Source of the DNA: Patellaria atrata CBS 101060
Lineage: Eukaryota
Reading direction: 5' to 3'
DNA length: 38,561 nucleotides
Assembly: GCA_010093705.1 (NCBI GenBank)
Contig: MU006125.1
Coordinates: 19,050-57,610 of the forward strand
The position numbers and the translations under genes are program-made. The notes beneath the pieces are model-generated. The model ran no database searches. It worked only from the letters and a program-made list of their open reading frames with translations, and was not told the origin of the DNA. Positions 1 to 37,262 of this stretch are shown here, in pieces (the stretch's first letter is position 1; each line of letters begins with the position of its first letter).

Positions 1-2634
1 GGTGCCGTCGTCTGATGCCGATGCCACGACCTGGCCGTCCGGCGAGAACGCTACGGCGCTGACCGAGTCCGTGTGGCCCTCGAGCGTGCTGAGGCAAGCG
101 TCCCAATTATCTTTCATCTTTGGTAGCTGGGTAATCCATCCCGGTATATACTTTATAAATGTCTTCCGTATTATACTCATCTCCGGAGCAAAAATAAGCG
201 CTGAAGAATAGATTTGTAGAGGTGCGTTTTCCAATATAGGTCGGAACCGTAATATAAATCTTTCTGCATCGCGAAGAAAATTTGAGCTAGCACTCCTATC
301 TGACTATACTATAGGTAAGTATAACGATCAATAGAATGTCTAAAACAATCTTACATTTTCGAGCATCTGTAAGCTATTGATCATATGGATACATTTATAT
401 GCATCTCCGATAAGGCTTATAGCTTCCAGCCAATATAGGAAATACTTCTGGAGAAAATGGTGGATGGCATCTCCGTCGTGTATGTGCCGTTTACTTTGCT
501 CCAAATGATGTACCCAATAACGGCAAGCATATTGTAACTCAGGCGGTAAACAGCTAGCTATTGTACCTTTATCAATCTCGCTTTTTAGAGTTCCTAGTCT
601 TTGGAGGTTACATATGTTTTTCTGGAGGCCTTTCGAACTGGACATTAACTGAAGACACTTAGCTACTAGCCTCTCGTGTGTTTCTTTCTCATCTATCCAG
701 AACGGACTCTTTCCCTTCTTTCGAGGATCGACTAGGAACTCGCGAAATGATAGATGTAGGAGCCTTATAGGTATATCCTCACTATCAGGAATGCTAAGAA
801 CAGATCGTAAAGAATCTAGGCGGCATCTAATATCTTCTTTTGGGATACTGAGGAGACGTGCAAGTGAGGGAATAGAGAGAGGACTTTCAAGAACGACGAT
901 ACTCCCAACTACTTCTCGAAACTCGCTGGTCCGTCTTTGCATGTCTGCTTCATCTTCGTCCTCAAATAGCTGATTTAGGATAGGAAGGTATGTTCTATCA
1001 AGCTTTGAAACATGAGTGACCGACTGATATTGAAGGACGGCTTCTAAGCGCTTTTTAGGATTATCTCGTTGATCTCCGATATATCGACACACAGTGGCAG
1101 CGAAAATGAACAATGGGATAGCGAGCTCGGCTAAGGCCTGCATTTGGGCTTTACTAGGCCAGTTGGGGGACAGCGAACGCTGCTGCTGTATCTCCCCGAG
1201 CTCATGCTCTAAGAAGAGACGTATATCGTGCTCGATAGTTTGCTTCGCCACCTGGTGAAGGATTAGGTCCTTATATGTGCCATCGGGCATACGTTTGAAC
1301 CCAAGGTGAATATGTAGCTCCGGCCTACTAGTTACAAAGACCCGTAACGACACTGGCGCAAGATCCGTAGTTCGTGAAAGAAGTTGGAGAATTGCTCGTA
1401 TATCTTCGACTCGCTCACATTCGTCCAGCGCGTCTATTACAATAACCAGTTCCATAGTTTGAATGGGTGCCGCCCGTAAGAGCGGCCGGAGGATTAGCTT
1501 CTCATACTGATCTTTTAAAGCCTTCTTAGAAATAGCTGGGTCGGCGTCGATTGCTTCCTCCATGCCTGATTTCATGCCTGGTACTCGACCCATCAGATGT
1601 GTAGCGATGGTGGTGAAGAATAGTCTGGCACTGGCGCGTTCTGCCTCGCCTTTCTTGAAAAAGAAGCTGGCTCCTAATTGACCTTGGTCGGCGAATGACT
1701 GGGCGAGAGTCCTTGCAATTGTAGACTTTCCTGTGCCAGCCATACCGTTTAGCCAGAATATACGTTTACTGTTTCTATCCTCCGCCCATTCTGTTATGTG
1801 GCGGAGTAACTCAGTTCGAGTACCTTGAAGGCATTTGGGATTATATTCTTCCATGTGAGAGTCGAAGGACGCTCCTTTCGCGATCGGTAGGTTAATCGAG
1901 ATATTATCTTTAATCTCTCTCTGGAGTCGATTTAACGCCTTCTGCCGTCCTTCGCCATATATAAGCGGCATGTGAACATCAAAAATGCCTAGTAAAGAAT
2001 ATGCTGCGTCTTCTTCGCGTTTAGTCTCGCGCCTTTCTGCCCATAATATCCGCTCCTTAACGCTAAACCCAGATAAACGGCTTCCTTGAAGAGCGAGAAC
2101 GGAAATTCCTGTTATTTCGTGAATTTCTTGTATAAGTGAAGATTTACTACCAAGTCGGTTACCCTCTACGGAGAAAAATTCCACGGATCTTGGAGCGATA
2201 AGTTCTTGGAGAGTCCAGCCTCGACGGAACCATCTGCTGTTCTGAAAGGCTAGTTTCCATCCACCTTGAGAGAGCACGTTGCTATCACTAGATCCAGTCG
2301 AAACATCTGAGAGATATACATAGCATTTGGCAGCATTTTGGTACCAGCGGAACATAGAGTTAATAGCCTCTGAAAGCTCGGCGTCGCTTGATTTATTGAT
2401 GCAGCAAGTGTCGACCCAGCAGAATTCCAGACCGTCATTAGCAGCTTGCGCTCCGCAGAATTGAATCTTTTTGTAGCCAGCCTTGGTTTTGCCTGTGCCC
2501 TTCACTAGATCTCTAAAGGTGACCTCTTCGTTATCATCTCCCCAGGTATGCGAAAGAATAGCATATTGGTGAATAGGAGTGCCTAAGAATTCAACCGGGG
2601 TGAGCTTGTCATCGTTAACTTGTAAAAGACGCAT
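1..2634 (-). CDS. HET-NACHT-WD40 (HNWD-type fungal NLR); exons 2634-355 and 303-<1, runs off window edge
   Basis: HET motifs YAILSHTWG, WVDTCCINKSS, WFRRGWTLQEL. NACHT Walker A GMAGTGKST and Walker B IVIDALDEC. Phase-0 intron 354-304 (GTAAGA..TAG) leads to APLQIYSSALIFAP and the first WD40 repeat TLEGHTDSVSAVAFSPDGQVVASASDDGT. Confidence 0.95.
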
Positions 2635-2842
2635 AACTAGTAGATTCTTGGAGAACTCTGGATAAGGGAACCGTTAAAATAATTGTAGATAAAATTTAGC
2701 CCTATGAAGTAGTCAAAAGAACAGCGATTGTGCTAGTTAGTAGATTCATGTTATGAGACTAAAGGAAGGCGAGCGGGGAGAATATGGGGCAGGGGCAGTG
2801 CATAATGGCTACAGTAAGGTCGATTGGTTCAATAGGGTATTA

Positions 2843-6052: not shown

Positions 6053-6111
6053 CCTATCTTTTATATCGTACAGCTCTAGAACTATAACCCGAAGAGCATA
6101 TAACGTACTCA

Positions 6112-6367: not shown

Positions 6368-8233
6368 CTAGGCGATTCCAATCTTCTCTTTATAGCGTGC
6401 CCATGCGGATATGAAATCTGCGCGCTGCTGATCGTTCATTGAGTTGACGTCCTCCACGCCAAATAGGTCACAGTACAACTGTTTAAAGTCCGCCATTTCG
6501 AGTTCCTGCCCTTTACCTCCGGTTGGAAGTGTACTTTTCACCGAGCGCTTGGGTACAACTGCCAAACTTGGGTTGGTTGACAGCTCACGTTGCCCGCGAG
6601 TGGTTTCGACTTGGAGTCCAACGGACGGGGAACGGTCCTTTGCTGCGCGTTTACCCGTCCTCACCTCATCAAATCTTTCTTCTGCTTCACAGGCCGCTGC
6701 GTAGATTGCCTTATCAGCTTCATGCGCACCCCACCTTTGTCGCAATGTGGCTCGTGTTTCCCACTTCTTCACCGACTCAGTGTCCTTTTCCCAGTGAATG
6801 AGAATGTACGTGGATGGATACCTTGCCCCTTTCTCTTTGACGACTTTCGGATTGATCAAGGCAAGTTCAGCATCCGCATTCGAACCGGCACCTGGCTTCG
6901 CCAGCCATGCAACGCCATAGATAGCCCGAATATGACGTTTCGTGTACTTGTACTTACCGCTTGCTAATCTCTGCTCTCCCTTCCGATTAGCAGGGTTGCT
7001 AACCTTCTGGTCATCTGGAGGATCATCGTCGTAGTTGGACTCACACCAGCTCTCAAGTCGATATTTCGGAGCGTTAGGCTGACCGTATTTGTTAATGAAC
7101 TTCGTCCCTCTCCCGGAGGACCAGCCGACGGTAGTGACGGGAATCGATGGGTCATTTTGCGGCCCAGGTCTATGAATGAGTGGCCTACCCAACTCCGGGT
7201 CTAGGGGAAGGTGCTTATCCTCTTCTTGACCTTGCGGATTCTCCTCGTCTTCCCGTTTGATTGATATGGGGACGTACACTGGCTGTTTCTGGGGGCTCCC
7301 GGTTCTTTCGGTGCGGTCTCTCCAAGGATTCGAAATTTCGGCCTCTGCAACGCCGTGATATTGCGTTTCATTGCCTTGGCTCACTAGGCCTTGTGGGCGC
7401 TCTCTGGCTCCCTATTATTAACTTATTAGTACATTATCATGCTGTTGCGTTTCGTTGTCTTTGCTCACCAGGGCTTCTGGGCTCTCTAAAGATTTGATTT
7501 TCTTCGCGATAGCTTCCAGCTCCTCCTTAGCATCTTTCTTCTTTTTGGTTAATTGTGCCTTCTCTTCCTTTGAAAGGATATTTCCCGCATCATTGAGGTC
7601 CTCGAGACATTTCGCTAGAATGACTCGCTGCTCTTTATCCTTGGCCTTCAAATCCCTTAACTCTTGTGTCATCTGATCCGTCCCGTTCTCATTCTCATTC
7701 TCATTCTCATTCTTATTCTCATTCTCATTCTCATTCTCATTCTCATTCTCATTCTCATTCTCATTCTCATTCTCATCCTCATTCTCATTCTCATCCTCGT
7801 CTTCAATGCGGTCATAATCTGACGTATACATTTCCTCGTATTCTGATAGATCTTCTTCTACAGCTGCATCTTCCGCCTCAAGTGCCGAGATCGAGCCCTT
7901 AAGTGAATCGATGGCTTCATTCTTTTGCTTAATCTGTTCCCTTAATTTCTTTTCCTCCCGTTTATGGGCTACCGGGTCTTCCGGGTGCGATTCCAGCTCC
8001 CAATCATCGAAATCATTCTGTAGGCGTTTAAGTTCCTCTATAAGCTTCTCTACTTCCTTCCTTTTCTGCTCTATCGTCTGCCGTCGGGATTTGCGGGCTT
8101 GCAGCGCCCTCCTTATTTTCGGGTCCAGCACCTTTTTGCCTTTATTGCGTAGATTTCTTTCCTTATCAATGATTGATCTCGTATTTTTCGTGCCCTTAGT
8201 TTTAGATGAAGATGACTTGGCTTTCTTTCCCAT
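6368..8233 (-). CDS. ~602-aa protein: basic N-terminus, coiled coils, (EN)n tract, C-terminal chromo-like domain; exons 8233-7469 and 7411-6368
   Basis: A 57-bp phase-0 intron (GTGAGC..ACTAAT..TAG, 7468-7412) joins ORFs 7418-8233 and 6368-7384 in frame (EAL|GARERPQGLVSQ). Confidence 0.8.
7686..7795. repeat. (TTCTCA)n coding microsatellite giving an EN dipeptide run
   Basis: Direct hexamer run read in the sequence. Confidence 0.95.
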
Positions 8234-8680
8234 TGTGATTAATATGACTGATAAATGGAAATCTTAATGAACAAACTATAGTAGAAAGGATGTTGAAGAA
8301 TGGGTGAGGATTATTGAATAGAAATCTCAAGTCCAGCTTGAGAGTTATTACTACTAAGTATAATGAGTTTAAGACTCTACTTGGGTGGTTTTATAGCTGT
8401 GGAAAACAATAATCATGGCTTTTAGCGCCGGAAGGAAATTCAGAATGTGATTACTAGATATTGCAACTCACCGTCTGAGATTCGGGCTATTGTAGATAAG
8501 TTCACAGTTTCCACTTCTGTTTTCCATGGTTTCTTCCCCTAATTTACGCAAGCGCTTTTAATAGATTTACCTTAGCCGCGCGGAAAGTTGAAAACCTAAC
8601 GCAACGGCTTTAGAACTTAATAATCACTTAGATAATATGGAGATGGCCGACTAATTTACTTTCGATCCGTATACTTCACA

Positions 8681-9392
8681 ATATTTTTATCTCTCTTCTT
8701 AATTCTTTATACGGCTCCACGCGCTATAGCATCATCATCCCGATACGGCTAAGATGTATCCTGGAATGAGACTATCCCCCGCGATCATGATACAGGATAT
8801 ACGGCATATAATAATACCGTGCAGCTTACTTTCGGGACCGCTAGCCGGCTTCAATTTGACCTATAAACATTACACGTCTTGCCGGGTACCACTCTGACCT
8901 TCAATTTCCTCGGTCTAAATCATACTTTAATACAAAGTTCATTCCAGCACCTATACAACCATACCGGCCCTATCGACACTGGCTTTAATCAATTCAATTC
9001 CCACAATGTTTCTAGAAGGTCCTTTATAAATGTCTTAGTCAATTCAACCCGACCGCTGTGGTTCTACTGCGCTCAAACTTTAAAGATAAACCACTGTAAG
9101 CAGGGAATGGTCTTCAGCGTTAACCTAGGTTTAGAAGATGTTGATTAAGCTTTCCGGCTAAATATAATACTGAGTGCACAGCTCTACGACTGCTATCTCC
9201 CACTCATGGCCGAACTCTACTACTGTCATGACTTAGTTGCTACTTAACTCAACAACTGTTATTTCTCAATTTTCGAGAACTATCCAGAACACCTGCGTAG
9301 GAGTAACGGCTCCTAGAACCCAATCTACTATAGCTCTCTCGACGCTTACTCACTACCACACGCCTTGCCAAACCACGAACGTCCGGCCGAGC
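8681..9392 (+). pseudogene. RIP-inactivated tandem copy of the cupredoxin-like gene
   Basis: Colinear with 9838-10580. ATG>ATA at 8681; stops at 8750, 8864 and 9146 (the last CAA>TAA); CCA TGC>CTA TAC removes a Cys. Confidence 0.9.
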
Positions 9393-9394
9393 TT

Positions 9395-9550
9395 GAGTCC
9401 GGCTTAAGGGTTGAGGAAGGTGAATTTAATAGTTAAATAGAAGTCTTAAGTCCGGCTTAAGAGTTAAGACAGGTGAATTTGGTAGTTAAGTAAAAGTCAA
9501 GTCCGGTTTAAGAGTTGTTACTCCTGAGCAAGGCGAATTTAATAGTCTAC
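9395..9550 (+). repeat. Three imperfect ~52-bp tandem units at the duplication junction
   Basis: AGTCCGG(C/T)TTAAG(A/G)GTT...AGG(T/C)GAATTT..TAGT three times; the third unit resembles 8329-8380. Confidence 0.8.
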
Positions 9551-9807
9551 CCCGCTGGTTTTTATAATAGCGAAAAAAAGGGAGGTGACGTTTTAGCTTT
9601 AAAATAGAATTTAGAACCTACTTAATAGTTACTCACTTCAACGATTATTATTTAGACGCTTTATAAATGAGCTTTTTATGGTTTCTAATTCTACTTCTCC
9701 CTTTCCCTTCTACGCGAGCGCTTAAAATAGTTCTACGTTAACCGCGCGAAGCTAAGAGTCTAAAATAATAGTTCTAGAACCTCTAAATTACTTAAATATA
9801 TGGCGGA

Positions 9808-10719
9808 ATGAATTACATTTCGTCCGTATGCTTCACGATGTTCTTAACTCTCTCCTTAATTCTCTGTACGCTGACGCTACGTACTATAGCATTGTCTTCT
9901 CCATATAACAGCGATGTATCTTGGAATGAGACCACTCCGCGTGTCTATGATATAGGGTATACGGCACATAATAGTACAGTGCAGGTCACTGTCGGAGTTG
10001 CTGGCCAGCTTCAATTCGATCCACATACTTTAACCGTCCCACCGGGTACTACATTAACCTTCAATTTCCTCAGCCTAAACCATACCTTAACACAGAGTTC
10101 ATTCGAGCATCCATGCAATAAAACAGGTTCTATCGACACTGGCTTCAATCAGTTTAATCCCCAAAATATCTCGGGAAGATTCCTTGTGGATATCATAGTC
10201 AATTCGACCCGCCCGCTATGGTTCTACTGCGCCCAAACCCTGAAAGCAGACCACTGTAGTCAAGGGATGGTCTTCAGCGTTAACCCTGGATCAGAAGCTA
10301 TTGATCAAGCCTTTCGTTCGAATGCAGTACTAGACATGCATACAACTAATGGGCAGGGAGAGCATTGCCCTACGACTATCGTCTCTCACTCATGGCCGAA
10401 CTCTACCACCATCATAAGCCAATCGGTGCTCAGATCAACGACTGTTATTTCTCAACCATCGAGACCTGTCCAAAACTCTTGTGAAGGGGCTACAACTCCT
10501 CGAATGCAACATTCTGGGCCTCTATCCATCTTCACTCACTCTCGGGCCCCCGCTCCGACCACGAGCGTCCGGCTAAGCTCGAATTCTAGTTCTTCGCCAA
10601 TAGACAATTCTCAGCCAAGCTTGAATAGTACCTCACCTACTTTAGATAATTTTGCATACCGTACAAGCTTGGAATGGAAATTGTTTCTGCCTTTGCTGCT
10701 CTTGAGCGTATTTGCGTAG
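9808..10719 (+). CDS. Secreted, probably GPI-anchored cupredoxin-like Ser/Thr-rich protein (start may be 9838)
   Basis: Hydrophobic signal-like N-terminus. NHTLTQSSF and PLWFYCAQ..HC..GMVF give the H/C/H/M type-1 copper ligand pattern. S/T-rich stalk and hydrophobic C-terminal tail. Confidence 0.88.
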   Translation: MNYISSVCFTMFLTLSLILCTLTLRTIALSSPYNSDVSWNETTPRVYDIGYTAHNSTVQVTVGVAGQLQFDPHTLTVPPGTTLTFNFLSLNHTLTQSSFEHPCNKTGSIDTGFNQFNPQNISGRFLVDIIVNSTRPLWFYCAQTLKADHCSQGMVFSVNPGSEAIDQAFRSNAVLDMHTTNGQGEHCPTTIVSHSWPNSTTIISQSVLRSTTVISQPSRPVQNSCEGATTPRMQHSGPLSIFTHSRAPAPTTSVRLSSNSSSSPIDNSQPSLNSTSPTLDNFAYRTSLEWKLFLPLLLLSVFA

Positions 10720-15302: not shown

Positions 15303-15653
15303 GGGTCTTCTAGAGTCGCAGGACTAAAATCTCCTATTAGCGAAAAGCCCCTATGGTCTTAATTTTAGTGAAAAAGCTTGGGTGAGCGGCAATTAAACGA
15401 ATAACCGCGTTTAGGCCGTAAGGTCTTTACGATTCGCTGGGAATTTCAACCCCGTGGCGGATCTGCCCCTACGGACATTTTTGTCAAAAACGCAGATCCG
15501 CCACAGGGTTGAAATTCCCAGCGAATCGTAAAGACCTTACGGCCTAAACGCGGTTATTCGTTTAATTGCCGCTCACCCAAGCTTTTTCACTAAAATTGTG
15601 CCCGTGGGGGCTTTTTGCTAATGCGAGATTTTGGCCCTGTGACGCCAAAGGAC
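15303..15653. repeat. Long foldback palindrome: 106-bp arms 15361-15466 / 15492-15597, 25-bp spacer, degenerate outer extensions
   Basis: Inner arms are reverse complements with 1 mismatch; the outer ~55 bp on each side still pair imperfectly. Confidence 0.95.
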
Positions 15654-15930
15654 CGAACGGTATCAACTTCCAACAGTTTCAAGCAGTCCTTGCAGAAATT
15701 CAAGTATCTCGAGGGGGGCTCCGCCCCGTGCATCACTGCGTTCGTCAACCCCCGCCGACTCAAGTCTATCCTAGGGAACGTCCCGTAACATCTTCAGAAT
15801 CAAGTATATTGTTGGAATTAAGGGTCACGCAAGGTGACTAGATATCTGAAACGGCCGAAGGCCATGCAATTGAGATAGCTGAATAGCCACCCATATGATA
15901 ATTGACAATCAATGAACACTTTACACCCTC

Positions 15931-16859: not shown

Positions 16860-17290
16860 GGTCTGACCCCTCTGAAGTCGACTTCGAATTCCTCATTCAG
16901 TTCAATCGTCCCTCTCAAATGGGACACTGTAACTACAGATCCCTCATAAGCAGCTAAAGCTTGAGCAGCCATCACAATGATTTCGATTCGCTTGATTAGT
17001 GGTGCGCGGGTATGCGGCTCAGATTTTTTTTCACTTACACATCGGCCGTTGAGCTGTTTGCTAATCAAGTAGTCAAAGTCGGATTTAGTATACTCCGCTT
17101 TACCTTTGTCCGCATCTACCATTCGAAAAACTTTTTCCATACTTTCAAACGAGCTTCTGCGTTGAGCGGCTCGTACCTAAGTGACACATTGATTCTGTTC
17201 GCTACAGCATCATCAATACGGTTCACCCGGTTCGTAGTGAGAATTAGAACTCTGTTATAGTATTCAAGTCTCTGTAGAAGGATGCAGACA
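16860..17290 (-). pseudogene. C-terminal fragment of a fungal AAA+ ATPase
   Basis: Translation LQRLEYYNRVLILTTNRVNRIDDAVANRINVSLRYEPL..RLKVW, a frameshift near 17125, then LNGR..AQALAAYEG..HL..IELNEEFEVDF. No Walker A/B upstream. Confidence 0.8.
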
Positions 17291-17562
17291 AGCGCATTCC
17301 TATGAATGTCTCGAATGGAGCACAGCCTATAGCTAATAAATTATACCTACGTCCAAGCTCTTTCTAGCTCAAATAAAGATCAAATCGAACCATAAGAACC
17401 GCACCTACCGTCCCATGCATAAGAGACCCTGCACTCGCTTCTGCCCCGATGATAGAACTGGAATTGCTTTTTTACTCTAATCACTGCTGGCGGATGGATT
17501 GTTGCGAGCGTGCTTGGAAGCGTAGGACGCTAAAAATGCTTCCCCTTCTTAGACCTAGCTTT

Positions 17563-19540
17563 CTAACGCCTTGTTTTCGAGATTCCTTGCGGTTTCCCAG
17601 AGTACGCTGAGTTTGTGTGTACCGTGGTACGTCGTGTTGATTTTTGTCTGGCCGTTGAGCTCGACTGAGCAGGTTGGACATCTTGATCGGATCCTCGTGA
17701 ACGTAGTTTCTTTATACGATTCGGTATGCACGCACTTCGGCGTAGAGGACCAACCAAGCTAGGGGGTGGAGACGTTGGGTAGCATGTTCGTTGAGATATC
17801 CGTTTGCTCCTGCGTAAGGCCACCTTAGGTGGCTCCTGTACTTCTACATGCGCTATATTATCGGTACGACCCTCAGGCGGCCCCATTCCATAGCAAGTGG
17901 TGCTGAGCTTTTGATTTAGTGGACGTTTTCTCCTCTGGCCAGACTTAAATACTTTCGAAGGTTGGACCTGACTAAGTGGTGACCGTTCCCTGGCGGATTT
18001 TCTTTTGGGCCGAGTGCTCTTCCCCGCCACACTCGATAGAGAAGCATTGCGCACGGGCCCACTTGGTGATGGCTTCGAATATGGTAGGACGGCCCGGTCC
18101 TGGTCCTGGTGATTGCCGTTGAACTGGCTGTCCTGACTGAATGGCGTATACTTCGCAGCGATTTCCGGGAACTCCCGCTCGACCCACGCTAGTAGAGCTT
18201 TCAGCGGCCTTACACGGTCCTGCGGACATAGCAAGTCATTCATCACCTCTTCGGTCTTGGTCTTCTCCCGTTCTATTTCTAGGAAACAAGTCTCCTCTTG
18301 CTCATTTACGCGTTTAAGCCTCTCGCGCATGTATACGTAGTACTTCTCCCATCCGTCTAGTAGATCGCGGTTGTGTTTGCTCCCCCAACTAGATGATGCA
18401 TATTCCGTAGCTACTTCCGTAGACTGTCCCGCGATCCACTCTAGCAGAGTATCCAGCCGTTCCAGACGTGTGTTGGCATAATTCACACTTACCTGACAAC
18501 TCCCTAGGTTTGATCGCGCGACGTCTCTTTGGGCTTCCTTACGTAATTGCTCTATTTCATCCGACTTCTCTGCTTCCAATCTCTTCTGTGCCGATTTGAG
18601 ATCTTCCTCCGCCTGCTCTGTTAATATGTTCCTTTCGGTAGTAGATAGTAACTCCTCCACCCCTAATACTTCCAGTCTCTTCTGCGCTATTTCTACTTCC
18701 TTTTGTGCCTGCGATATTTTCTCTCTATACCTAACCATTTCTGCAGCCCGCTTCCATAATACGGCTTCGGGAATCCCTACTGACCCATTCTGCTTAGCTT
18801 TCATCATCCGCTCCTCTGCTGTTTCTAGCTCTCTTTTCGCTCGGCTAAGCTCCTTCTCTAGAGTATCGCGTTTCCGATACTCATAGATATAGTATTCCCT
18901 CCATTCGTCTAACTTCGTCTGCCGGTTTAGCTGTAGCTCTACGACCCAATCGGTTCCCTTCTCCTGTTGGTACCTATGGACAGCCTCCTTGTATTTATTG
19001 AATATCTTCGAATCCTCCCGCTTTTTGAACTGGTGCCACCGGAAGTCCAGCCATAGGGTGAGTTCATCCCGAGTCCGCCATAGTTCCCCATTCCAATGAT
19101 CTGGAGCATGATATCTTTTGTCTATATCAGATTTCCAAGGAGGGCAGGGACCGGGATCGGGGTTTATCTCGCGAGGAGGCCTACCGCCCACGTTCTTTAA
19201 ATCCTTATAGTTCTCGTAGGCACTATATCGTGTATGCTCAATCAGCTCTTCCTCCGTCAATTCGGCTCCAGCAGTTACAGGAGTACTAGGAGCATCGCTC
19301 GGGGTTGGGGAACGTCTTGGGGAGATTTGCCTGTATTGGATTGAGTAGTTAGCGCTGTATAAGCTTGGTATCGAGCGTGCACCTCACTCACCGTAACTTC
19401 GTGCTAAGTTCATCTGCGTTCACAGCGCGGGATTCAGATGGTTTATCCCTTTCACGTATAAGGGATCTTCGTACAAGAACGCTTAGCAGGAATTCTTGGT
19501 ATATTGAACTAGGACTTACGTGAGCCGTTCCAACCGCTCA
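17563..19540 (-). CDS. Coiled-coil hypothetical protein (>565 aa) with basic disordered tail; small 5' exons, start unresolved
   Basis: Long ORF 17563-19260 with GGRP, ELxxWxxFRxxQ and QTKLDEWREY motifs. Upstream in-frame exons lie between GTAAGT..GCTAAG..AG and GTGAGT..GCTAAC..CAG introns. Confidence 0.8.
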
Positions 19541-20148
19541 TGCGTTAGGTTATGCTTGTCGATGACGTCGATATATCTTAAAAGACAATGCTGCGTTAAC
19601 CCAAGAGCTCTATGCTGAAGCGGTTTATATGAGTTTAAGGGCACTCTATACTTACATGTGGGTTCTATCGCCTGCTCGCTGATCCCATTTCTGAATGTCC
19701 TGGACAGTCAGAGTGTCCAGCTCCTTGGCTAGAATTAGCGGCATATTGAGGTTGATGAGTGGGTGGGGGGTTTAAATGTGCTGAGCAGTTGGGAAAGGTG
19801 TGAAGTGGATGATGGAGGTGGGAAGGCTAAGTAAGCTTGAGGTTTTCGTTTGCGGAAATAGCTTAGTCATATAGTTTGGAGTCCTATTTCTCCGAGCCAT
19901 GGCCTGCATCTGGACGCTCGGGCTTTTCCCCAGTCGTTTCTTCGTTGCCAATCGTTCGCATCACAGCGCGTACTCCTAACATGCTGTGCATGCCAACAGG
20001 GGGCTACTCTAATAGCCAACACCTTATATCATGGCACTTGACCCTCTGCCCTGGTTTAAATGTAATTCTGCGTGTCTTTTATTCTCTTCAGAAGCTGCAA
20101 CGCCAAAGAAGTTCCCCACTCAAAGCTTCCTGACTGTATTCTATCAAA

Positions 20149-23100
20149 ATGAAAGAAGATCCGAACGTCATTTTCATACTAAGGGCAATCAGCCCTTACG
20201 CCCAGAGATGGTTCCAGCACTCGCACAACAAGACATATTACGTACCTCCACCTCATGTCGAGATAGTAGCTGCTGCCAGCCGAGAGTCAACGCCGGCGAC
20301 GAATGTAGGAGATGAAGAGGAGGATGCCGATGGGCTGGGTGACGTTTATGAAGATTTTAGTCCCCAACTCCGCTTCATATTCGACCAAAAGCCGAAGAAT
20401 ATCCAGGCCGGATATGTGTTCGGCAGTAACCCGAAAACCTGCGATGTCTTAATAGGGCGTTCTATAGATGGCATAAGCAGTTCGCATTTCAGGATCACGT
20501 TTGACAGTCAAGCCCAGCTTGTGTTGATAGACTCGTCCATGTTGGGAACGGCAGTCAGCTACGGTGGCCGCGCAAGGAACGACAAACGGAACAATCCACC
20601 GGACCGGAAACGGAACAGACCACGGGACAAATCCCTAGACTTCACGTGGATCCTGTTCCCTGAAATCAAGAACAAAACCGTCGTAATCGGAGGTGCTAAA
20701 CGCCCTAGCAGCTCCAACGTCCCCGTCATCGAGTTCTCGGTGGAGGTTGCGGAGCCCGAGACTGGGTCCTGCAAGGAACAATACACGAATCTGAAGAATG
20801 CATTTCTGGACGAGATGGGAAGGGCGATCCCGTTCGGTCTCGACATCGATAGTTCCCTAACCACCGCAGGCCAGACGGAATCACACTCTCCAACACAGCG
20901 TCCGATACAGCGTCTGAAACAGCGTCCGATCTGGATTGATCTTGAGGAAATCGGAAGGGGCGAATATGGGATTGTCTACCGGGCTATTAATGTGAGTACC
21001 GCTACAATATATGCTGCTAAAATGTTCCTACGGTCGGGAAAAGAGATTCGGGAAAAGTGGGATAGGGAAGTTGCGATTTTGCAGAGTGTTTCGCATGTAA
21101 GGATTATCTCGCTTTAGTAGACGACAATTAACTTGTTTTAGGACCACATCGTAAAGTTTGTAGATCACGATACTGAACATAAATGGCCTCGCCTTATAAT
21201 GGAATACCTGCCCCTTGGAAGCCTAGCGAATCAGCATAGAATCACGGAATATGAGACTATTACACTGCTCTATCAGGGACTTAGCGCTCTTAATTATCTA
21301 CACACTGAAGAGATCGTACATCGCGATCTCAAACCGGAGAATATCCTGGTTCAGTGTCGGGATACCGCCAATTTCTCAATCAAAATTGCTGATTTCGGAA
21401 TGGCTAAGGATGGCTCGTTCCTAAAAACGGTCTGCGGCACACGACTCTACGCTGCCCCGGAAATTTGGAAGGGGTCTCCTTACACCTCTAAGGTAGATAT
21501 ATGGTCGCTGGGTGTTATCGCGTTTAAGTACGCACGTGGCCTCCCGAACGTCCCGAAGGTAAATGGCCAATTCGATGCTGAATCCTGGTATCAGGCACTT
21601 GCTCGGGCGATTTCTAATCGGGGCTCACATAAGTTAGTAGACTTTCTCTCGTCCAGCATGCTGAAGGAGGATCCTCTCGAAAGGCTCTCAGCGAGCGAGT
21701 GTCTGGAAGAATTAGCCAATCTCCGCGAGGTAATTATACCAGCGCAGAATTTTGAAACTGACTACGGAACGCCTACGGAAAAAATGTCCTCGTCATGCAT
21801 CATGGATGCTCTCCGGGCTGCCGGATATGGAGGGGGTCAGGAGACGTCTGTTGAGGAGGCAGAAACACAGATTCACCTCTCCGCACTTAGTATACCCAAG
21901 TCTGACCGGCGACTTGGCAACTATTTTGATACAGCAAAGGAATACGAACGAAGTCGACAGGATGGAGGAGGTCAGGAGTTGGCTACTGAAGAGGCGAGAA
22001 CATGGTCCGCCTTCCCCACGCTTAGCACGCTTAAGTCTGTCCGTCAACCGGGCGAGTTTCTGGAAAGGCTGCCACAGATATGGGATCCTCCCGGCGAAAC
22101 TACGTGCAGGCCGGAAGAAGACGAAGGAAGTCGGCAGGAAGTTGGTATCGGCACAGGCAATGGTTCCGACAGAAAGCATCCGAAACGTCAACGTACCGAG
22201 GGATCCAGCGTTATCACATCCCAACTGACACACCAAACTTCCGGGGAGGTCCTCCTGGCAGCTTTCTCCGACCGTGGGTCCTCAGTCAATACTGATACCT
22301 CGTCTAAGATTACTGAGTGGGAGGGGTCATCGTATTTACGACCATTCAGACTGTCAGAAGTCTTGGAGAGACATTCAATCCAGCATCATGAAGACGACCA
22401 GTCCGCGCCGTCACCGAAGGCGGCAGACAAGAACCAACCATCAGGGTCCTTCCAAAAAGCCACCGTAGAATCTACGGCCCATTTACAGGACGTCCAAAAG
22501 GATTTGGATTTGTCTACGGTTCCGCATGGTCTCATCCGGGACACGGGTACGTTAACGGACGCTGGTGCCCAAGCAAACAGACATTATATGCAAGACACTT
22601 ATAATCGTAGCAAGGAGCAGTTCGAAGAGGTGAAGCAACGCTACACACTCGTAGGAATGAGTAGTCCTCCCTTCGCTGCGGATAAACTGCAATCGAATCT
22701 CCCAGATGAGGTTGGACATGGCAACGGTCCTACTGAACAAACTCAACAACCTACAGAAAAGAGATTTCTGGTGGTTTCGACTATCTATGGCGCTATTCAC
22801 TTACTTGTAGAGGGCTCAAATCTGCTAGTAAATGCCACTAATATTGCAAAGATATTTGGATATAACAGAATTTTATCCTTTAAGGGCAGGCCAAGGCCAA
22901 TTCTAAGCCTTACCAGAGAATTGGACACGCGACTGCAAGGGAGTTACTATACTGTTGAATCCGCGCTTAAATTCTGTGATCTCTTGCCTGCACAATCAGA
23001 TGCACAAGCAACGCATGCGATTGGTCAGGTGCTTAAGGAAACGTTACAGAGATGTATAGAGAATCATCGATCTGGACAAGACAAACTACTTATAAAACCT

Positions 23101-23281
23101 TTATACCGCAACAAAATTCGGCAAAGGTGCGGAAGATGTGCTCGACTGCATATCATTTGCAATCGTGAGATTCCCTGCCAGAATTGCACACAGGCTAGTA
23201 AAGGTGAGCACGATTGATTTAGGTACTAGAGAGTGCGTTCTGACGATTCGACTAGACTGTGTATACGGCGCCCGCCAGTGA
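20149..23281 (+). CDS. FHA - Ser/Thr kinase - KilA-N/APSES-like - Zn2Cys6 protein, ~1011 aa; exons 20149-21096, 21142-23203, 23256-23281
   Basis: FHA-like GYVFGS..CDV..GISSSHF..LIDSSMLGT. Kinase GRGEYG, AAK, HRDLKPEN, DFG, APE. VNATNIAK..LQGSY segment. C-x2-C-x6-C-x5-C-x2-C-x6-C completed across a 52-bp intron. Confidence 0.9.
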
Positions 23282-23403
23282 CACTTGCACGATTCTCTCG
23301 CTCAACTCGGTTTAAGCGGATTATAGCGGGCGGAGTTTGGGCATAACCTCACTGGGCCCTTACGGACGCCAAACTTCAACCCTTCAGATCTTCCCTCTTC
23401 CGT

Positions 23404-24004
23404 TTATCGCTTCTCCTCGAGAACAAAAGGGTGTTGGTGGGGCTGTATCAGCGGCCTGATGCTCTCCCGCAAAGTCCAAGGGCTGGCTGGTAAACCACGC
23501 AAACCAGCCCAAGACGTCGCGTTATCTCGCTCCTTCGGGTCGGCGCTACCAACCGCTCTCCTCTCGGTAGAATGGATTATCCCCTTCTTTGCACTTGTCG
23601 AACACGGCCTGCGCTGCCGGATCGAGACCTGCGACATCTCCGAAGAAGGCTTCGAAGAGATCAGGAACGTCAACGTGGAGTTCACGAAGCTGGCCGTGTT
23701 GCGGAGCAATGGTGTTTGTTGAAAGGGTGATGCGGGACGGGAGAGGGAGGGTCGATTCGGCGATGGCGTCGTAGACCTTGTTCCAGGTGACTTCATCGGG
23801 CTCATCATTAAGGTCTGCTTTTAGAAGAGGGGTTATTCGGTCGGTGCCGAAGTCATCGGTGTTGACTACGGTCATAAGTTTTGACATATCGTCAAGGAGG
23901 TTCTTGCCGCCACAGTTTGAAGGTAGATAACGTGAGGCAGGGAGGGTTTGCAAAGCGGAGACAAGAGCGGCCAATAGATCTTGGAGTTGAAGATGATGTC
24001 TCAT
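23404..24004 (-). pseudogene. N-terminal fragment of a FunK1-type fungal protein kinase
   Basis: QQTPLLRNTASFVNS and FEAFFGDVAGLDPAAQAVFDKCKEGDNPFYREESGW*RRPEGAR*RDVLGWFA resemble the region preceding the FunK1 kinase domain. Frameshift, stops, no catalytic domain. Confidence 0.75.
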
Positions 24005-25891
24005 CTCTTACCTACACATTCACACATTGTAAATGTGTTGTCATTGAAGATAAGAAGAACAGAACGGGTATCTAATCTTCCTCTAGGCTATCTGCGGAGA
24101 GTGTGCTCTTCCCGAAGACAGTATAGAACATCAAGATCCAATAATGCTTGTTTGTCCTTGTCTAGAACATTCGAAACACGGAGTCCAGCATTTGGCACGA
24201 TGTTACCAAGCTGTTTATCCAATTTGTACCGACGATGATGCGCAGATACGGCTTCCCTGTGGTGAGTATTTCATGAGACATCATATTTAACTGGAATTTA
24301 GGTATGCTTTAGGTCATTGCTTCTGCGAGGACTGTATTCAGAGACTGGTCCACGCACAGAGTAACGGGACATCTGCGATGTTTCAGTCTGGGTATCCTGA
24401 GCTATGTTCTAAGATGATCCGACATCGTTCGCTATAAATAATGCACATCTCCCATTAACCGAACGAATACTCCTTTCTAATACTGTTAGGAATATCGTCA
24501 GGTTTGTCCCCGCTGAACCGTGATGTTTGCCTTATCATTAACCTTAATGATTCTCGCAAGCCATGAGGTAGTTTCTCTTTTCATAAAGAGATATTTGCCC
24601 TCCTGGTACTGACGTTCTTGATTGCCAGAACGACACCGAATATGCGTATTCAAGGTGTTAAGGTATCTTAAGCAAGACTTCAACTCCCACCAATAACTAT
24701 TATATTCCCAATTGAAAATGAAACAGGTGCTACTATAGCAACGACTGGTCATCATTCACGGATTAACGAGCATTATATTGAAGGCTGACCTACTCAAATT
24801 GCCTTTAGTTGGCGGTGGCTAGGAACGCACGGAATAAGTAGACTATGTATGAGCCATGGAATAGAAATTTTTTATGCATCTTCTTACACCACGCATAGGA
24901 TGATCCGTTTTGGTTACCTCAAATTTAGTGCTCGTTTATTTAACTTCCTACAAAACCTGCTTTAGAATTAACAGTCGTCTACTTTGTTGTTCTAGATCGC
25001 ACTATAGAACGATTTGCCTGTAAATAGATTTTTGACAATCTGCATTTCTTCATTCCTATCTAATTAGAGACAAAAATTGAAGATTCCTTTTGAGGGCGGC
25101 AAGTTTCACTGTTTCCCGAGGTTCTATGTGACAAGTTTACTATCTGTGACGCCAACCATGGATGGTAATCGTCGTTTGTGGCCTTGACGCTACATGTATC
25201 TCGGAGCCGGACCCTCGGCTGAATCGGAAAGGGAGTGTGATGCCCGAGGGAGACGAGGAGAGAGGATAATATGGCAACACAGCGCAACGAAACTTATGCC
25301 GGGAAAATTTCCTTTTCTTTTTTTTGGGGTGGGGGGTGGGGGGATGGGGTATCTAGCTCCCTCACTCATCCTAAACGCATTCCCCGGGGTAGAAAAGTCG
25401 TAAGGGATATACCTGAGTGAGATGGAGATGGTAGTTATTGGCGGGCCATGGAACTCACGCCGAACCAGACCCGATATCTTGTGAAGATGGTCGGACACGG
25501 TTTCTATTATCATACGCATTTTGTGTGAGGAGCTAGAGGGTAGCTTGATAGCGACGGTGGTATACATGTATCCTACAGTTCTATGATTATTGATGAGAAA
25601 GGAGATAACTTGTAGGTAGTGATGAAGGGAGGGGAGGGGAGAAAATACGAGAGCGAGAGCGAGAGCGAGAACAACAGTAGATGTTCCACTAATTTCATAC
25701 CTTATGAAAGATCTTGAGAGAGAAGAGAAAAGTAAACGAAACATTATTCCTAGCCATTACAAACCCATCGAAAAGGCCAGTTCAATGTCAAAGCCCTCAT
25801 GTAACATCGAATATGGCCTTCCAGACGCTGTGTTATTCATACAAATTATAGCTGCGTAATAAACCCGTAAATCATTCCCTACCTCGCCAAA

Positions 25892-26757
25892 TTATAATTC
25901 CCTAACTGCAGTTTCTAAAGTCCATAATTTCTGATCCTTCTCCTTATTCTGTATTCTCAATCTCTTGATCTCGGCCCTAAGATCCGAGGGATCAGTCTCC
26001 TGTCCGCTACTTTCACCTGTTAATCTCCGTCTCTTCTGACCTGTCTTTTCGCCTTCACTGATCTCCTCATCCACCTGTGCGGGATTCGTAATAAGGGCAC
26101 CTGGAACTTCACCCTCAGCCTTGGCTCTATCAGACGATCCTGAGACATTTCGGTGCATACGTCGGATATGCTCGTGCAGATTTTCCTTGCGGGCAAATTC
26201 TTGACTATAAGAGCGCTTGCACTCTTTATAAGGACAGAAGAGCGATTGCTTTATACCGCTGTAGAGTTTGTGCACCTCGCGGAGGTGGCGAGTCAATCCA
26301 CCATTATAAGTGAAGCCCCTCATATATTTACAGCTTGGGTATTTACATTTGTAAGGCCGGTCATGTTTATCCATATGTCGACTGGGGCAAATAATTAGTG
26401 AGAGTCCTAAATAGGTGAGAATGATATGGAAAAGGGAAAAAAGTAAACATAATAGGAAGATGAGATGAGAAGTAACGAACGTGTAAATTTAGATACTTAT
26501 ACATGATAATAGAGATTAAATTAAGGGATAGAGGAGGTGTATACTCACCTCCAGTCGCATTTGCGATTGAATGTCAAATGACTGCACTTTACGCTTCGCG
26601 TACATATCATTTTGTTCTCTGTATTCCGTTCGGGAGATTCTCTTCGTTTATATAAATGCCCACGTCTAGAAGAAGAGCACATGCCGCGACCTTGATCTTC
26701 AGGAGAAGTAACATCCTCCGAAGAGTCTTGTGCCGGATATTGTACTCCTTCCAACAT
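25892..26757 (-). CDS. Three-finger C2H2 zinc-finger protein with C-terminal coiled coil; exons 26757-26549 and 26381-25892
   Basis: Intron GTGAGT..CAG (26548-26382) completes finger 1 (CTRSVKC..CDWS-RHMDKH); fingers 2 and 3 are CKYPSC..HLREVH and CPYKEC..HIRRMH. Confidence 0.88.
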
Positions 26758-27931
26758 TTTCCTCGACGGGGGACTCTTTAATCACGAATAACTGTTCGAA
26801 CTCACTAGAATTAGAGGAAGTTGGCTAGATTATATAGTCAAGTGATAGCCCCTTATGTTAAGGCTCTCATTAGAAACACCTCTTAGTTTGGGATGCGTCA
26901 TAGGTATACGTATTTGGATAAAGGTGAGCGTGGTAAACTAGAGGCGCAGCATCAGGCACCGGAGGAACGAGGTTGACACTTAAAGGAGAGTTAGTGAGGC
27001 TGGCTTGCCTCTATTATAGCAATTCCAGCGATAGGTTACGGCCGGGTGAGGTGTCGCTTTCACAGGCATTAATATTTACCTCAGGCGAAGGTGAAAAGGC
27101 TGAGGCTCGTCCCTGTAATTGAATGGAATCCTACTTAATGAGTTTGTCAAAGAGCGCTTTCACCCAGACACACCAAGGCTACAATCGTCCTCTTACATTA
27201 CTCATAGGAGGATCCATTTGATTGCCTCAAATATAGTGCACGTTTATCTAACTTTCTACAAAACCTTCTTTAGAGTTATCACATATCAACAGCATCATTC
27301 GTCTGCTTCGGTGCCTTAGATAGCTCATAACTAATCATAGGTACTCCGAAAAGTTTAGGTTAATGTCCTTTTAAGCTTGCTATTGGTTCACAATCTAGTG
27401 CTTTAGGTGCCACCTAACCAGTTATTTTCTAGTTACTTCCGGTGAAATATTTGGGGGAATTCTGTTACCTATCTGATAAGTTAGGTCCAAGGATCTCCTG
27501 TTATTTGAATAGGTTCTGTTGGCTTAGCCACTCAAATAACAACGGTATAACCTCCAATAACACCGCAAACCGTAAGCTGAGACGTCGGGGAAATCGGGAG
27601 ACAGCATAGGCTGTCTCAACACTTTCTTTCCTTAAGTTTAAGCTTCATGTACATATAGCAATATACCTTTCAGCTTCCATCTGAGGTTGAGCCATGACAG
27701 GGGACAAGGCTCACGTTCCACAACCAGAGAAATGGGACTGCAAATCAACTCCATACTTTCACTTCGAGCAGATTTTATTCTATAAATAACAGATCTTCCT
27801 TAGCTTTAAATCATTATCTATGATAACATGCTATATGGCCCTAATACTTACAACGGTGAGGGCTTTCGCCTAAAGAACTTACTTAAACCATCTTCAGCTT
27901 TGAAAAGTTCTTAAAGGGGGCGCAATTTCAG

Positions 27932-28088
27932 CTGTTGAATGAGGGTGGAGACGGAGTATATGGCATTACCACGGGACGTATTCTCAACGACTCAACAGAT
28001 TGTTTCTACTCTAGTATATAACGAGGTGTTACCTCCATATGTAGAACAATCAAGCGATTATCCAATTCATCAGCACTCCTACGTCTGA
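27932..28088 (-). repeat. Right arm of inner inverted repeat
   Basis: Reverse complement of 6112-6269; contains the core at 27978-28058. Confidence 0.95.
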
Positions 28089-31187: not shown

Positions 31188-31426
31188 AATCAAGCGATAT
31201 ACTCCGTGTGTCACGATCTGGATCTATGATCGCAACAGCGGCTCGGGCCACCACGGGTTAGCTAGTCGGCCCGAGCTTTAGCATATGGATATATCTCTCC
31301 CCTGATTGTAAATAGCTTTCTCTCCTCAACTTGTTGTTCTTAGTCAATGGAGTACTGCTTTAACCCATGCTACGTATCAAAGATACTCGCTGTGACATCG
31401 TGCACTTGCAGATCCAGCTTATCTCA
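31188..31426 (-). repeat. Right arm of outer inverted repeat, interrupted by a solo LTR and lacking most of the core
   Basis: AATCAAGCGATATACTCCGTG plus CACTTGCAGATCCAGCTTATCTCA reconstitute the reverse complement of 2843-2887. Confidence 0.85.
31209..31397. mobile_element. 189-bp solo LTR
   Basis: TGTCAC...GTGACA termini; TSD CCGTG/TCGTG; the empty site is visible at 2843-2887. Confidence 0.88.
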
Positions 31427-31550: not shown

Positions 31551-32171
31551 NNNNNNNNNNNNNNNNNNNNNNNNNNNNNNNNNNNNNNNNNNNNNNNNNN
31601 NNNNNNNNNNNNNNNNNNNNNNNNNNNNNNNNNNNNNNNNNNNNNNNNNNNNNNNNNNNNNNNNNNNNNNNNNNNNNNNNNNNNNNNNNNNNNNNNNNNN
31701 NNNNNNNNNNNNNNNNNNNNNNNNNNNNNNNNNNNNNNNNNNNNNNNNNNNNNNNNNNNNNNNNNNNNNNNNNNNNNNNNNNNNNNNNNNNNNNNNNNNN
31801 NNNNNNNNNNNNNNNNNNNNNNNNNNNNNNNNNNNNNNNNNNNNNNNNNNNNNNNNNNNNNNNNNNNNNNNNNNNNNNNNNNNNNNNNNNNNNNNNNNNN
31901 NNNNNNNNNNNNNNNNNNNNNNNNNNNNNNNNNNNNNNNNNNNNNNNNNNNNNNNNNNNNNNNNNNNNNNNNNNNNNNNNNNNNNNNNNNNNNNNNNNNN
32001 NNNNNNNNNNNNNNNNNNNNNNNNNNNNNNNNNNNNNNNNNNNNNNNNNNNNNNNNNNNNNNNNNNNNNNNNNNNNNNNNNNNNNNNNNNNNNNNNNNNN
32101 NNNNNNNNNNNNNNNNNNNNNNNNNNNNNNNNNNNNNNNNNNNNNNNNNNNNNNNNNNNNNNNNNNNNNNN
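31551..32171. other. Assembly gap (621 N)
   Basis: Run of N preceded by a C-run. Confidence 1.
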
Positions 32172-34530: not shown

Positions 34531-35332
34531 TCGTTTATCATAGCGCTACCCGTACCCTGACACTACCGTTCCTAAACTTACTATCGGGTGAAGTTTTTAT
34601 CTCAGTATGATAGTTAGCGAATATATTTAGCTCGATTCCGTTGAAAGTCTCAGAGACAGCGTGAGTTTTCTTGTAAACAGACGTCAAAGGGGCCGGTTAT
34701 AGGTATATAGAAGCGTGTTCCATAACTGCACCGTCATATCTAGCTTATATCTCAGCTGTTTGGAGTCCTGCGCGCGTATTTTTGATCTCAACGGCGAAGA
34801 TTACCATCGTAAAATCGTAGTCTGAGGGTTAAACTTCACCCTCTAGCGTTTCTTTTGCTTCTTTGAAAGATGTTCAGAAGTATATATCTCGAAAATATCC
34901 GGCTTGGTACATAGAATCCCTGTTGTGAGTTGATATGTTCCGAGTATTAATTATATCCAGGCACCTTCGGTATCTTAGCGAGCGCGGAGTAGAACGTTGA
35001 CTTGCAAGTTACTTCGTTCTGTTTCTTAGTCGCAGTCTCAAGTTATTGCTTGTAGTCCTCTTTAGTTGGTTGGGAGATTTTCGCGAGATCGAAATACTCC
35101 AGAATTTTCTTGATATCATAGATATAAAATAAGAGATGACATTAAAAGAGTAAGGTGATATTATAGTTATGGTGATAAAACTAAGTTAGAGCCGAGCACT
35201 TAGCTCTGAAGATCTCTAACACAAATTCCTGGAGATCTTATATCTTCCAACATAAGGCTGTCGGGGATCAGCCGTCTGACACTGTTTTCGGTTATCCGTA
35301 ATCTCACATATAGTAGGACAGTCGCGTTTGCA

Positions 35333-35602
35333 GCGCGATGCCTAAACAACGGCAAACCAATGTTCACCGCGTCTGAGATAGCTCAGCTTGAGAATAGCTG
35401 TAGATCTTTTACCGAAACATATAGTGACACCAGCTACAATAAATGAAAGACAATAAAGCTGAAAGGAATATTACGTAGTCGTGGTATTGGTTTCGATCAG
35501 AGGTTAAGTAAGAAAGACCTTATTCGTGTGCTAGAGTAACATGTTAGATATATGTACGCAATCAACAATTTCATCGATAACGCAAATCGATAGGTAGAAT
35601 TT
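35333..35602 (+). pseudogene. Inverted paralogous copy of the JmjC gene's 3' end plus 3' UTR
   Basis: ARCLNNGKPMFTASEIAQLENS..SYNK*KTIKLKGILRSRGIGFDQRLSKKDLIRVLE* aligns to ORF 35791-36060; the UTR shares ATCGATAGGTAGAATTT. Confidence 0.9.
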
Positions 35603-37246: not shown

Positions 37247-37262
37247 AGTCTAAAAAGCGTCT

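Follow-up and report, generated by a model that had tools for sequence, protein, structure and literature searches.

What does the locus at positions 20149 to 23281 of a stretch of Patellaria atrata CBS 101060 DNA encode, one protein or two, and how might its product act? The stretch, here called the window, comprises 38,561 nucleotides (nt) of contig MU006125.1 (assembly GCA_010093705.1), and a sequence-only reading of it had pointed to a kinase fused to two putative DNA-binding modules. Our analysis of gene structure and homologs confirmed that one real gene encodes an FHA-kinase-KilA-N-Zn2Cys6 protein. Sequence comparison indicates that its kinase family descends from a ChkC/Mus-59 (Rad53/Chk2-type) checkpoint kinase and has lost the checkpoint inputs, namely, the N-terminal SQ/TQ sites, the FHA Arg, and the C-terminal FHA-like domain. 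We propose that the product is a checkpoint-uncoupled, chromatin-tethered, ChkC-derived kinase carried as accessory cargo, with predicted DNA binding, a reading that we rate as about evenly poised between right and wrong. Papers are cited by PMC number and from excerpts.

One spliced gene spans the locus

Joining the three exons (Table 1) from the ATG at 20149 gave a product of 1011 amino acids (aa) with 0 internal stops, in which an FHA fold, a kinase, a divergent KilA-N/APSES fold, and a Zn2Cys6 cluster follow one another. The two component open reading frames (ORFs; 20134-21117 and 21142-23217) run in the same direction and are joined via intron 1, which the gene needs and which the sequence-only reading had lacked. 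The intron 1 junction is also present in public model P0012, and the exon 1 ORF of a homolog (P0145) stops at the same place. The kinase frame is intact and shows no bias resembling repeat-induced point mutation (TpA/ApT 0.79). Two read runs (probably DNA from one sample, possibly the assembly source) were free of differences and joints across 17000-27000, a result with no bearing on splicing or expression.

Intron 2 had been predicted at 23204-23255, with the sixth Cys supplied by a 26-nt last exon, and both predictions held. When this intron is left in, the frame terminates at 23217. Public model P0001 uses the same intron, and all seven unspliced five-Cys homolog predictions (7/7) carry a Gly six residues past Cys5, the position of the G/GT donor. 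Read-through reaches [DG]C-x-Y in three of these seven, the spliced homolog P0003 ends in DCIYT, and the acceptor-side reading of P0013 resembles that of the Patellaria kinase gene. Among the other listed splice sites, several regain Cys6 via the 23255 acceptor or by read-through to it; 23204-23255 is the only listed option with a GTGAG donor and six Cys at canonical spacing. Because splice signals, the public model, and homologs agree, we infer that intron 2 is real and that its position recurs in homologs.

Public annotation cuts the locus in two: P0012 (395 aa) covers part of the FHA-kinase, and P0001 (523 aa) is a zinc-cluster protein. Both NCBI models exist, under consecutive accessions, and an internal transcript start is possible. 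However, 21142-23217 is free of stops and frame breaks; P0001 starts at M489, within the kinase C-lobe and ahead of the subdomain XI Arg, which P0012 (flagged as partial) lacks; and homologs P0144, P0008, P0005, P0007, P0010, and P0013 are single chains from kinase to tail. Given the frame open throughout, the P0001 start inside the C-lobe, and the single-chain homologs, the split is unlikely, and we regard two separate genes as a very improbable account of the locus.

The kinase is intact, and its checkpoint inputs are lost

The intact catalytic motif set noted by the sequence-only reading was recovered in full, from G269-x-G271-x-x-G274 through K291, E307, H376-R-D378-L-K-P-E-N, and D400-F-G to APE at 421-423 (Pfam Pkinase on exon 2, 136.3 bits). 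By this full eukaryotic protein kinase motif set, the kinase is catalytically intact and no pseudokinase. HRD and DFG are retained throughout its subclade, and the activation-loop Thr (T412/T416) is presumably equivalent to Rad53 T354.

The FHA fold scored 19.9 bits on the protein (Pfam cutoff, 20.7) and 22.8 bits in the genome search. As had been noticed, G92-S93 stands where G-R is expected, and the phosphothreonine-binding Arg and Asn are both absent (Ser93, Leu132). Across 33 family rows, the Arg position holds S or T in 30, R in 2, and a gap in 1, and it is R in L007, the genome's own normal Rad53/ChkC-type gene. The R70A substitution of the matching Arg in Rad53 reduces phosphopeptide binding (PMC2064674). 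SQ/TQ sites, typical of ChkC kinases (PMC3591445), are missing from the first 80 aa of the Patellaria kinase and of four of the five homologs checked; L007 has two TQ there.

A search with the kinase C-lobe collected 110 proteins, and a quick tree of 115 rows grouped 74 rows in one clade (Shimodaira-Hasegawa-like approximate likelihood ratio test, 99), made up of 72 other proteins and the Patellaria gene twice, or about 73 sequences including the latter. The named members presumably represent Dothideomycetes, Eurotiomycetes, Lecanoromycetes, Leotiomycetes, and others, classes that we assigned from organism names. The distribution of the family is patchy, with few sequences per cluster, and scans of metagenomes and viruses for kinase homologs returned distant kinases only (28-49% identity).

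L007 comprises an FHA domain, a kinase, and a C-terminal domain, and we named it ChkC from this architecture rather than by comparing it with the protein of A. nidulans. When 25 family N-termini were made into a profile, L007 scored 64.6 bits and a ChkB-type FHA kinase segment, cut by introns, 8.0 bits, the best two of 437 segments. In a 50-row kinase tree, from which long-branch rows and most outgroups were dropped, 36 family rows lay on one side of a branch (100/99), with L007 placed between them and 13 outgroup rows (100/94). L007 adjoins the family in both trees; the quick tree flagged long branches, and ChkB and Mek1 are outside the trees, ChkB because introns split it. Rad53 could not be told apart from other CAMK-group kinases by a sequence search of the PDB.

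A swappable tail with a predicted, degenerate KilA-N/APSES fold and a zinc cluster

The KilA-N/APSES call of the sequence-only reading found no match to Pfam PF04383 (KilA-N) on the Patellaria kinase protein, but it gained support from a family profile, profile-profile alignment, and a fold model. Forty-five tail domains of kinase homologs went into the profile, from which the Patellaria protein and its six nearest tail relatives were excluded. It scored 14.6 bits on the Patellaria tail, a value reached by none of 2000 shuffles (best, 5.9), and recovered the genome's three true APSES genes at 79.5, 40.0, and 22.0 bits. Aligning the degenerate with the other tail type by hhalign gave 93% (E 3.3e-7), and four homologs (P0009, P0092, P0097, and P0144) passed the Pfam KilA-N cutoff. 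An AlphaFold2 model of the tail on a 27-row alignment reached a predicted local distance difference test (pLDDT) value of 80 and, compared with 48,161 chains, matched Mbp1 best (Z 9.2; root mean square deviation, 2.6; 86 aligned; second Mbp1, Z 8.6); further matches were a granulovirus Orf22 domain (Z 7.8) and Bqt4 (Z 6.1 and 5.7). Most family KilA-N repeats retain the basic helix-B segment in the alignment. These results support a degenerate KilA-N/APSES fold as the predicted structure of the tail. In the ESM Atlas, neither of the two tails searched had a usable match by features, and structure rows stayed below the bar for naming, with KilA-N clusters leading for P0005. In Zopfia, the same degenerate domain is modeled as a fusion to DUF7924 (P0004). 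Given this joining, the module may shuffle among accessory genes.

The zinc cluster has the spacing C-x2-C-x6-C-x5-C-x2-C-x6-C, and the call depends on removal of intron 2: Pfam Zn_clus gave 15.0-20.8 bits unspliced, below the cutoff of 21, and 22.8 bits on the spliced P0001. All six Cys and the conserved intron recur across nine sequences. The C-terminal region thus matches both families sought there, Zn_clus directly and the KilA-N fold indirectly.

Of the 72 family rows, 30 carry KilA-N-like domains (a single one in 15, two in 13, and three in 2), against none of 34 outgroup kinases, as scored with a profile itself built from family rows. The Patellaria subclade holds 13 distinct sequences (support, 99), all with a KilA-N-like domain and seven with a zinc cluster; three additional zinc-cluster or tail fragments came from a separate search. 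On these counts, the FHA-kinase-KilA-N-Zn2Cys6 plan is rare but not unique, and the corresponding three-part architecture occurs in P0005, P0007, P0010, P0013, P0015, and P0016. The degenerate KilA-N type occurs together with the zinc cluster in P0003, P0005, P0006, and P0013 as well. The make-up of the tail is modular: two KilA-N-like repeats are combined with a cluster in P0005 and P0010 and stand without one in P0144 and P0008.

A conserved partner gene

Head to head with the kinase lies a gene (P0115) for a protein with a conserved N-terminal region, a long heptad-rich helical middle, and a basic Ser/Arg/Pro tail, which matched no Pfam family. It has 27 homologs (40-78% identity in the region searched), five of them in Zopfia rhizophila. 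Kinase and partner have consecutive accessions in Patellaria atrata (KAF2834207/08/09), Trematosphaeria pertusa (KAF2241935/36), Paraphaeosphaeria minitans (KAF9733805/06, KAL5372043/44, and KAL5401178/79), and P. sporulosa (KAK7178100/01); the partner therefore adjoins the kinase in all four named genomes of the close subclade, which span two fungal orders. In addition, the kinase and partner homologs P0016 and P0123 each lie on a contig of equal size (19,628). Overall, a link to a partner was established for 5 of the 13 subclade members, in a comparison limited to the longest contig, several of the remaining contigs being too short. The head-to-head orientation was seen in the Patellaria genome only. 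A complex prediction made without alignments for the T. pertusa kinase (P0144, 1-530) and partner (P0124, 8-365) scored 0.00, which speaks neither for nor against an interaction. Taken together, gene order and layout suggest that the coiled-coil partner likely cofunctions with the kinase as regulator, scaffold, or substrate.

Such a pair could also be a toxin-antidote or drive system, in which the head-to-head partner neutralizes an unregulated kinase that harms the cell or element-free nuclei. The fixed two-gene linkage in the four named genomes would fit, the lost regulatory inputs suggest unchecked activity, and Starship regions carry Spok and NOD-like receptor (NLR) genes (PMC9156397, table S11). 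However, partner homologs are known for part of the kinase family only (27 proteins versus 72 kinases), and few subclade members could be linked to one; we consider this explanation distinctly improbable.

The locus lies in accessory DNA downstream of a dead Starship captain

Over its first 12.5 kb, the contig carries ordinary core genes, named from a reading of their translations. After these come a tRNA-Glu, a broken DUF3435 captain, an assembly gap, and then the window, which runs to the contig end and contains a HET-NACHT gene together with orphan genes, small inverted-repeat elements, and the kinase pair with a FunK1 fragment. The captain sits 22 kb upstream of the kinase, 5' of and facing the accessory DNA, and the HET-NACHT gene begins about 2.5 kb past its end. 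NLR genes are typical Starship companions, and a Starship-like region has been defined as DUF3435 near DUF3723, FRE, PLP, and/or NLR, without a target-site duplication (TSD) (PMC9156397); the captain and HET-NACHT gene agree with this definition. The captain's upstream flank had no match inside the window, with which the contig ends. The kinase pair is likely cargo of a degraded Starship-like region, and we go no further than "likely" because the search turned up no boundaries and 22 kb separate the kinase from the captain. Kinases are common cargo, with 211 PF00069 entries in the supplement of PMC9156397; the excerpts of that supplement list four KilA-N genes, with no kinase annotation among them, and no gene with FHA (PF00498). 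In about 4 million characters of the PMC11162782 supplement, no KilA or FHA term occurred.

TABLE 1 Coordinates of the kinase gene, its domains, and neighboring features (window positions unless prefixed)
Feature	Position	Strand	Description
Kinase gene exon 1	20149..21096	+	N-terminus without SQ/TQ, FHA fold (aa ~72-200), kinase N-lobe
Intron 1	21097..21141	+	45 nt, phase 0, GTAAGG...TTAAC...TAG
Exon 2	21142..23203	+	Kinase C-lobe, ~340-aa low-structure linker, KilA-N-like domain, Cys 1-5 of zinc cluster
Intron 2	23204..23255	+	52 nt, phase 1, GTGAGC...CTGAC...TAG
Exon 3	23256..23281	+	26 nt, provides Cys6 and TGA stop (ends 23281)
FHA core	20413..20556	+	aa 89-136; Ser93 for Arg, S110-x-x-H113 kept, Leu132 at Asn position
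Ser/Thr kinase domain	20932..21708	+	aa 262-505, intron 1 inside, RD type, all catalytic motifs
Predicted divergent KilA-N/APSES-fold domain	22756..23052	+	aa ~855-953; family hidden Markov model, hhalign, AlphaFold2, Mbp1 fold match
Zn2Cys6 cluster	23128..23260	+	C979-C1005, interrupted by intron 2, Cys6 from exon 3
Head-to-head partner (P0115)	17563..19744	-	662 aa; ~400 bp from kinase start
FunK1-type kinase fragment	23459..23962	-	Broken N-terminal; convergent with kinase 3' end
HET-NACHT NLR gene	340..2673	-	Pfam HET 51 bits, NACHT 32 bits
DUF3435 captain	G000:C37:14792-15772	+	115.5 bits, five stops
Captain locus and tRNA	G000:C37:13772-16917; L008:4673-4765 (tRNA), L008:5193-7818 (captain)	- (tRNA), + (captain)	Upstream of window

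The sequence-only reading had suggested that the kinase acts for an element marked by inverted repeats. Action for an element is plausible; the likely element, in our view, is the Starship-like region with its captain just outside the window and not the repeats. The 131-156-nt arms at 6114-6269 and 27932-28086 have further copies (a third at 2877-2957 and, on another contig, C1, one at 73%; four in all), and they were therefore set aside as ends of a kinase element, although a nested element is possible. No TSD was seen by eye at their outer ends, and a Pfam scan of 20 window ORFs found no transposase; these repeats look dispersed.

A further possibility is that the gene is a decaying hitchhiker, a chimera from domain shuffling in accessory DNA whose tail drifts without a selected role. 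The captain is dead and the neighbors are fragmentary; tails vary among close kinase relatives, with the zinc cluster dispersed over the tree (6 changes, a number at least as low being reached in 152 of 500 shuffles); and the Zopfia homologs are fragments. Against this stand 1011 open codons with catalytic motifs, six Cys, and both introns retained, the recurrence of the degenerate KilA-N plus zinc-cluster combination in four homologs, and conservation of the partner over two orders. We judge drift quite unlikely.

Several observations concern the surroundings themselves. The intact tRNA-Glu(CTC) lies ~430 bp ahead of the dead captain, and a 37-nt, 86% piece of the same tRNA lies beside captain locus L020, with none in the stretch examined at captain locus L019; this gives a hint of tRNA-Glu targeting by captains. 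Window positions 3183-3270 hold an 88-nt, 90% copy of the captain 3' end, related also to L019, which suggests a trace of another captain or a rearrangement. The FunK1 fragment matched a full-length PF17667 gene of the Patellaria genome (L199) by tblastn (34% over 200 aa, E 5e-26). N runs occur at 31551-32171 and, in the gap between captain and window, from ~8750 of L008, and continuity there rests on the scaffold.

One repeat has nested copies at 2867-2957, 6114-6269, 27932-28086, and 31188-31208, two forward and two reverse and 94-99% alike; weak matches also occur on contig C1 and where the contig of the window begins (L009:69-117). Further inverted-repeat structures at 5021-6058, 15304-15654, 35120-38042, and 35308-36022 include 180-nt arms (97%) enclosing ~680 nt, a near-palindrome of 350 nt, and, within 160-nt arms, a decayed palindrome of 715 nt; the structures over 5021-38042 suggest miniature inverted-repeat transposable element-like or foldback relics. 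Positions 8533-9396 and 9701-10582 are tandem copies (70%) of one gene, whose product is Ser/Thr-rich, secreted, and cupredoxin-like by our reading, with no Pfam match above cutoff; the first copy has no long ORF. At 6368-8263 (minus strand), two adjoining ORFs encode a coiled coil in which a hexamer repeat yields an (EN)n run and then a 347-aa frame, which has what we take to be a chromo-like look and no Pfam match. At 25892-26488 (minus strand) lies a C2H2 zinc-finger gene (Pfam zf-C2H2_aberr, 34.7 bits), another small regulator.

Proposed mechanism and points against it

Rad53-type kinases are activated when FHA-bound scaffolds crowd them, leading to mutual phosphorylation. In the Patellaria protein, we propose that a swappable nuclear-targeting tail of KilA-N/APSES repeats, here with a terminal Zn2Cys6 cluster, takes the place of the lost inputs. 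The tail would dock the kinase on chromatin, the zinc cluster on CGG-type half-sites and the KilA-N fold adding nonspecific DNA or protein contacts; local crowding would then substitute for a Rad9/Mrc1 scaffold and permit trans-autophosphorylation of the activation-loop Thr, and nearby transcription or chromatin proteins would be phosphorylated without a damage signal. Yeast SBF brings Rad53 to promoters, where Rad53 phosphorylates Swi6 and Nrm1 (PMC9797190); the fusion would therefore unite two parts that already cooperate and could make SBF-type recruitment permanent and damage independent. The kinase-partner pair would be accessory, probably mobile cargo outside the core checkpoint. A fuller version, in which a mobile two-gene Starship module wires a checkpoint kinase, released from ATM/ATR control, to chromatin through exchangeable KilA-N and zinc-cluster domains, DNA-templated clustering activates it, and the partner helps rewire host damage or G1/S transcription to favor persistence or transfer of the element, is tentative and on the whole unlikely.

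A number of findings weigh against chromatin tethering. Both targeting modules are degenerate in the Patellaria kinase. Gal4-type clusters have a basic first loop and a dimerization region after the cluster; here, basic residues are scarce between Cys2 and Cys3, and the six residues that follow Cys6 leave no dimerization region. Pfam found no Fungal_trans (middle homology domain) match in the Patellaria protein or P0001. The tail fold model is partly circular and not independent of the profile result, because its alignment contained KilA-N-like homologs; folded without an alignment, the tail gave an unusable pLDDT of 40, and Foldseek returned no match for the model at E<=0.001, Mbp1 coming first at E 0.54. 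At the place of Mbp1 helix B, the model shows coil. The QXGXGXXQ wing motif, which reads CGCG in PCG2 (PMC4333399), is present in none of the 45 family domains, the Patellaria copy keeping only the last Gln; therefore, recognition of MluI or Swi4/Swi6 cell cycle boxes by these domains is unlikely. Other points concern the family and its setting: 42 of the 72 family rows have no KilA-N-like domain, many being short or partial; three Zopfia tail homologs are modeled without a kinase, on contigs whose sizes differ from those of the five Zopfia partner homologs; ChkB was not placeable in the kinase tree; the Patellaria contig yielded neither a Starship boundary nor a TSD nor DUF3723, which lies on another contig; and public annotation divides the locus. 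Thus, of the DNA-tethered kinase put forward by the sequence-only reading, the targeting folds are supported and tethering remains the leading interpretation, while helix B, the wing motif, and the dimerization region are missing.

Some of these findings would also fit a protein-docking module, in which the KilA-N fold binds motifs of nuclear proteins and steers a constitutive kinase to substrates such as the partner or host cell cycle regulators. The Bqt4 N-terminal domain, a structural match of the tail model, is a protein-interaction module (PMC6379675), the Swi6 version of the fold binds no DNA (PMC4333399), and helix B and the wing motif are the parts missing in Patellaria. Nevertheless, Mbp1 outranks Bqt4 by 3 Z units, and the basic helix-B segment is kept in most family repeats. 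The zinc cluster, of a class that as a rule binds DNA, keeps its six Cys and intron over nine sequences. We consider docking on proteins the main rival to tethering, but rather unlikely.

For the tethered kinase as we propose it, all parts are known individually, and the combination is new relative to the literature searched. We found no description of a fungal FHA-kinase-KilA-N family there (subscription journals were outside the scope) and no paper on Starships with KilA-N or on zinc-cluster/kinase fusions. Fungal KilA-N is treated as the SBF/APSES family (PMC4862756), and term searches of excerpts of PMC2838846, PMC3591445, PMC9934661, PMC13004909, and PMC12289983 brought up no mention of such a kinase. 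The family is apparently undescribed; specialists may already have met the FHA-kinase-KilA-N plan, because it is visible in public Pfam annotation (P0144). Automatic annotation masks the family, splitting the Patellaria gene in two and labeling several homologs Rad53, Srk1, or Atg1. By joining a Rad53-type kinase to the DNA-binding fold of SBF and dropping the damage sensor, the family would offer a natural test of activation and aiming by tethering alone. Fungal KilA-N proteins would gain a class other than the SBF/APSES transcription factors, and the unexplained genes carried by Starship-like regions would include a conserved pair of kinase and partner.

Comparison with known systems

Like the Starship-like regions of PMC9156397 and PMC11162782, as excerpted, the Patellaria region has a DUF3435 captain pointing toward accessory DNA, a HET-NACHT gene next to it, and kinase cargo; it differs in its broken captain, in the absence of detected ends or TSD, and in having DUF3723 on another contig.

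With Gal4-type Zn2Cys6 factors (PF00172), the cluster shares the six-Cys spacing and, once spliced, a score above the Pfam cutoff. Unlike theirs, it sits at the extreme C-terminus, is followed by neither linker nor coiled coil, and has a first loop poor in basic residues; Fungal_trans is absent.

The KilA-N-like domains resemble APSES/KilA-N proteins (Mbp1, Swi4, PCG2, Swi6, and Bqt4; PF04383) in predicted fold (Mbp1, Z 9.2) and in the N-A-T and Q-G-x-Y/W motifs, and four family proteins pass the Pfam cutoff. In contrast, the family domains are C-terminal, often tandem, and attached to a kinase, without ankyrin repeats or QXGXGXXQ; the Patellaria copy also lacks helix B in the model.

The closest likeness is to ChkC/Mus-59 (PMC3591445), in an FHA fold ahead of an RD-type CAMK-group kinase, a homologous N-terminal region (64.6 bits), and the activation-loop pattern L-K-T-x-C-G-T. 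Whereas the Patellaria kinase lacks the SQ/TQ cluster, the FHA Arg, and the C-terminal FHA-like domain, it has gained a KilA-N-like plus Zn2Cys6 tail within a patchy, accessory family, in a genome that retains the normal copy, L007.

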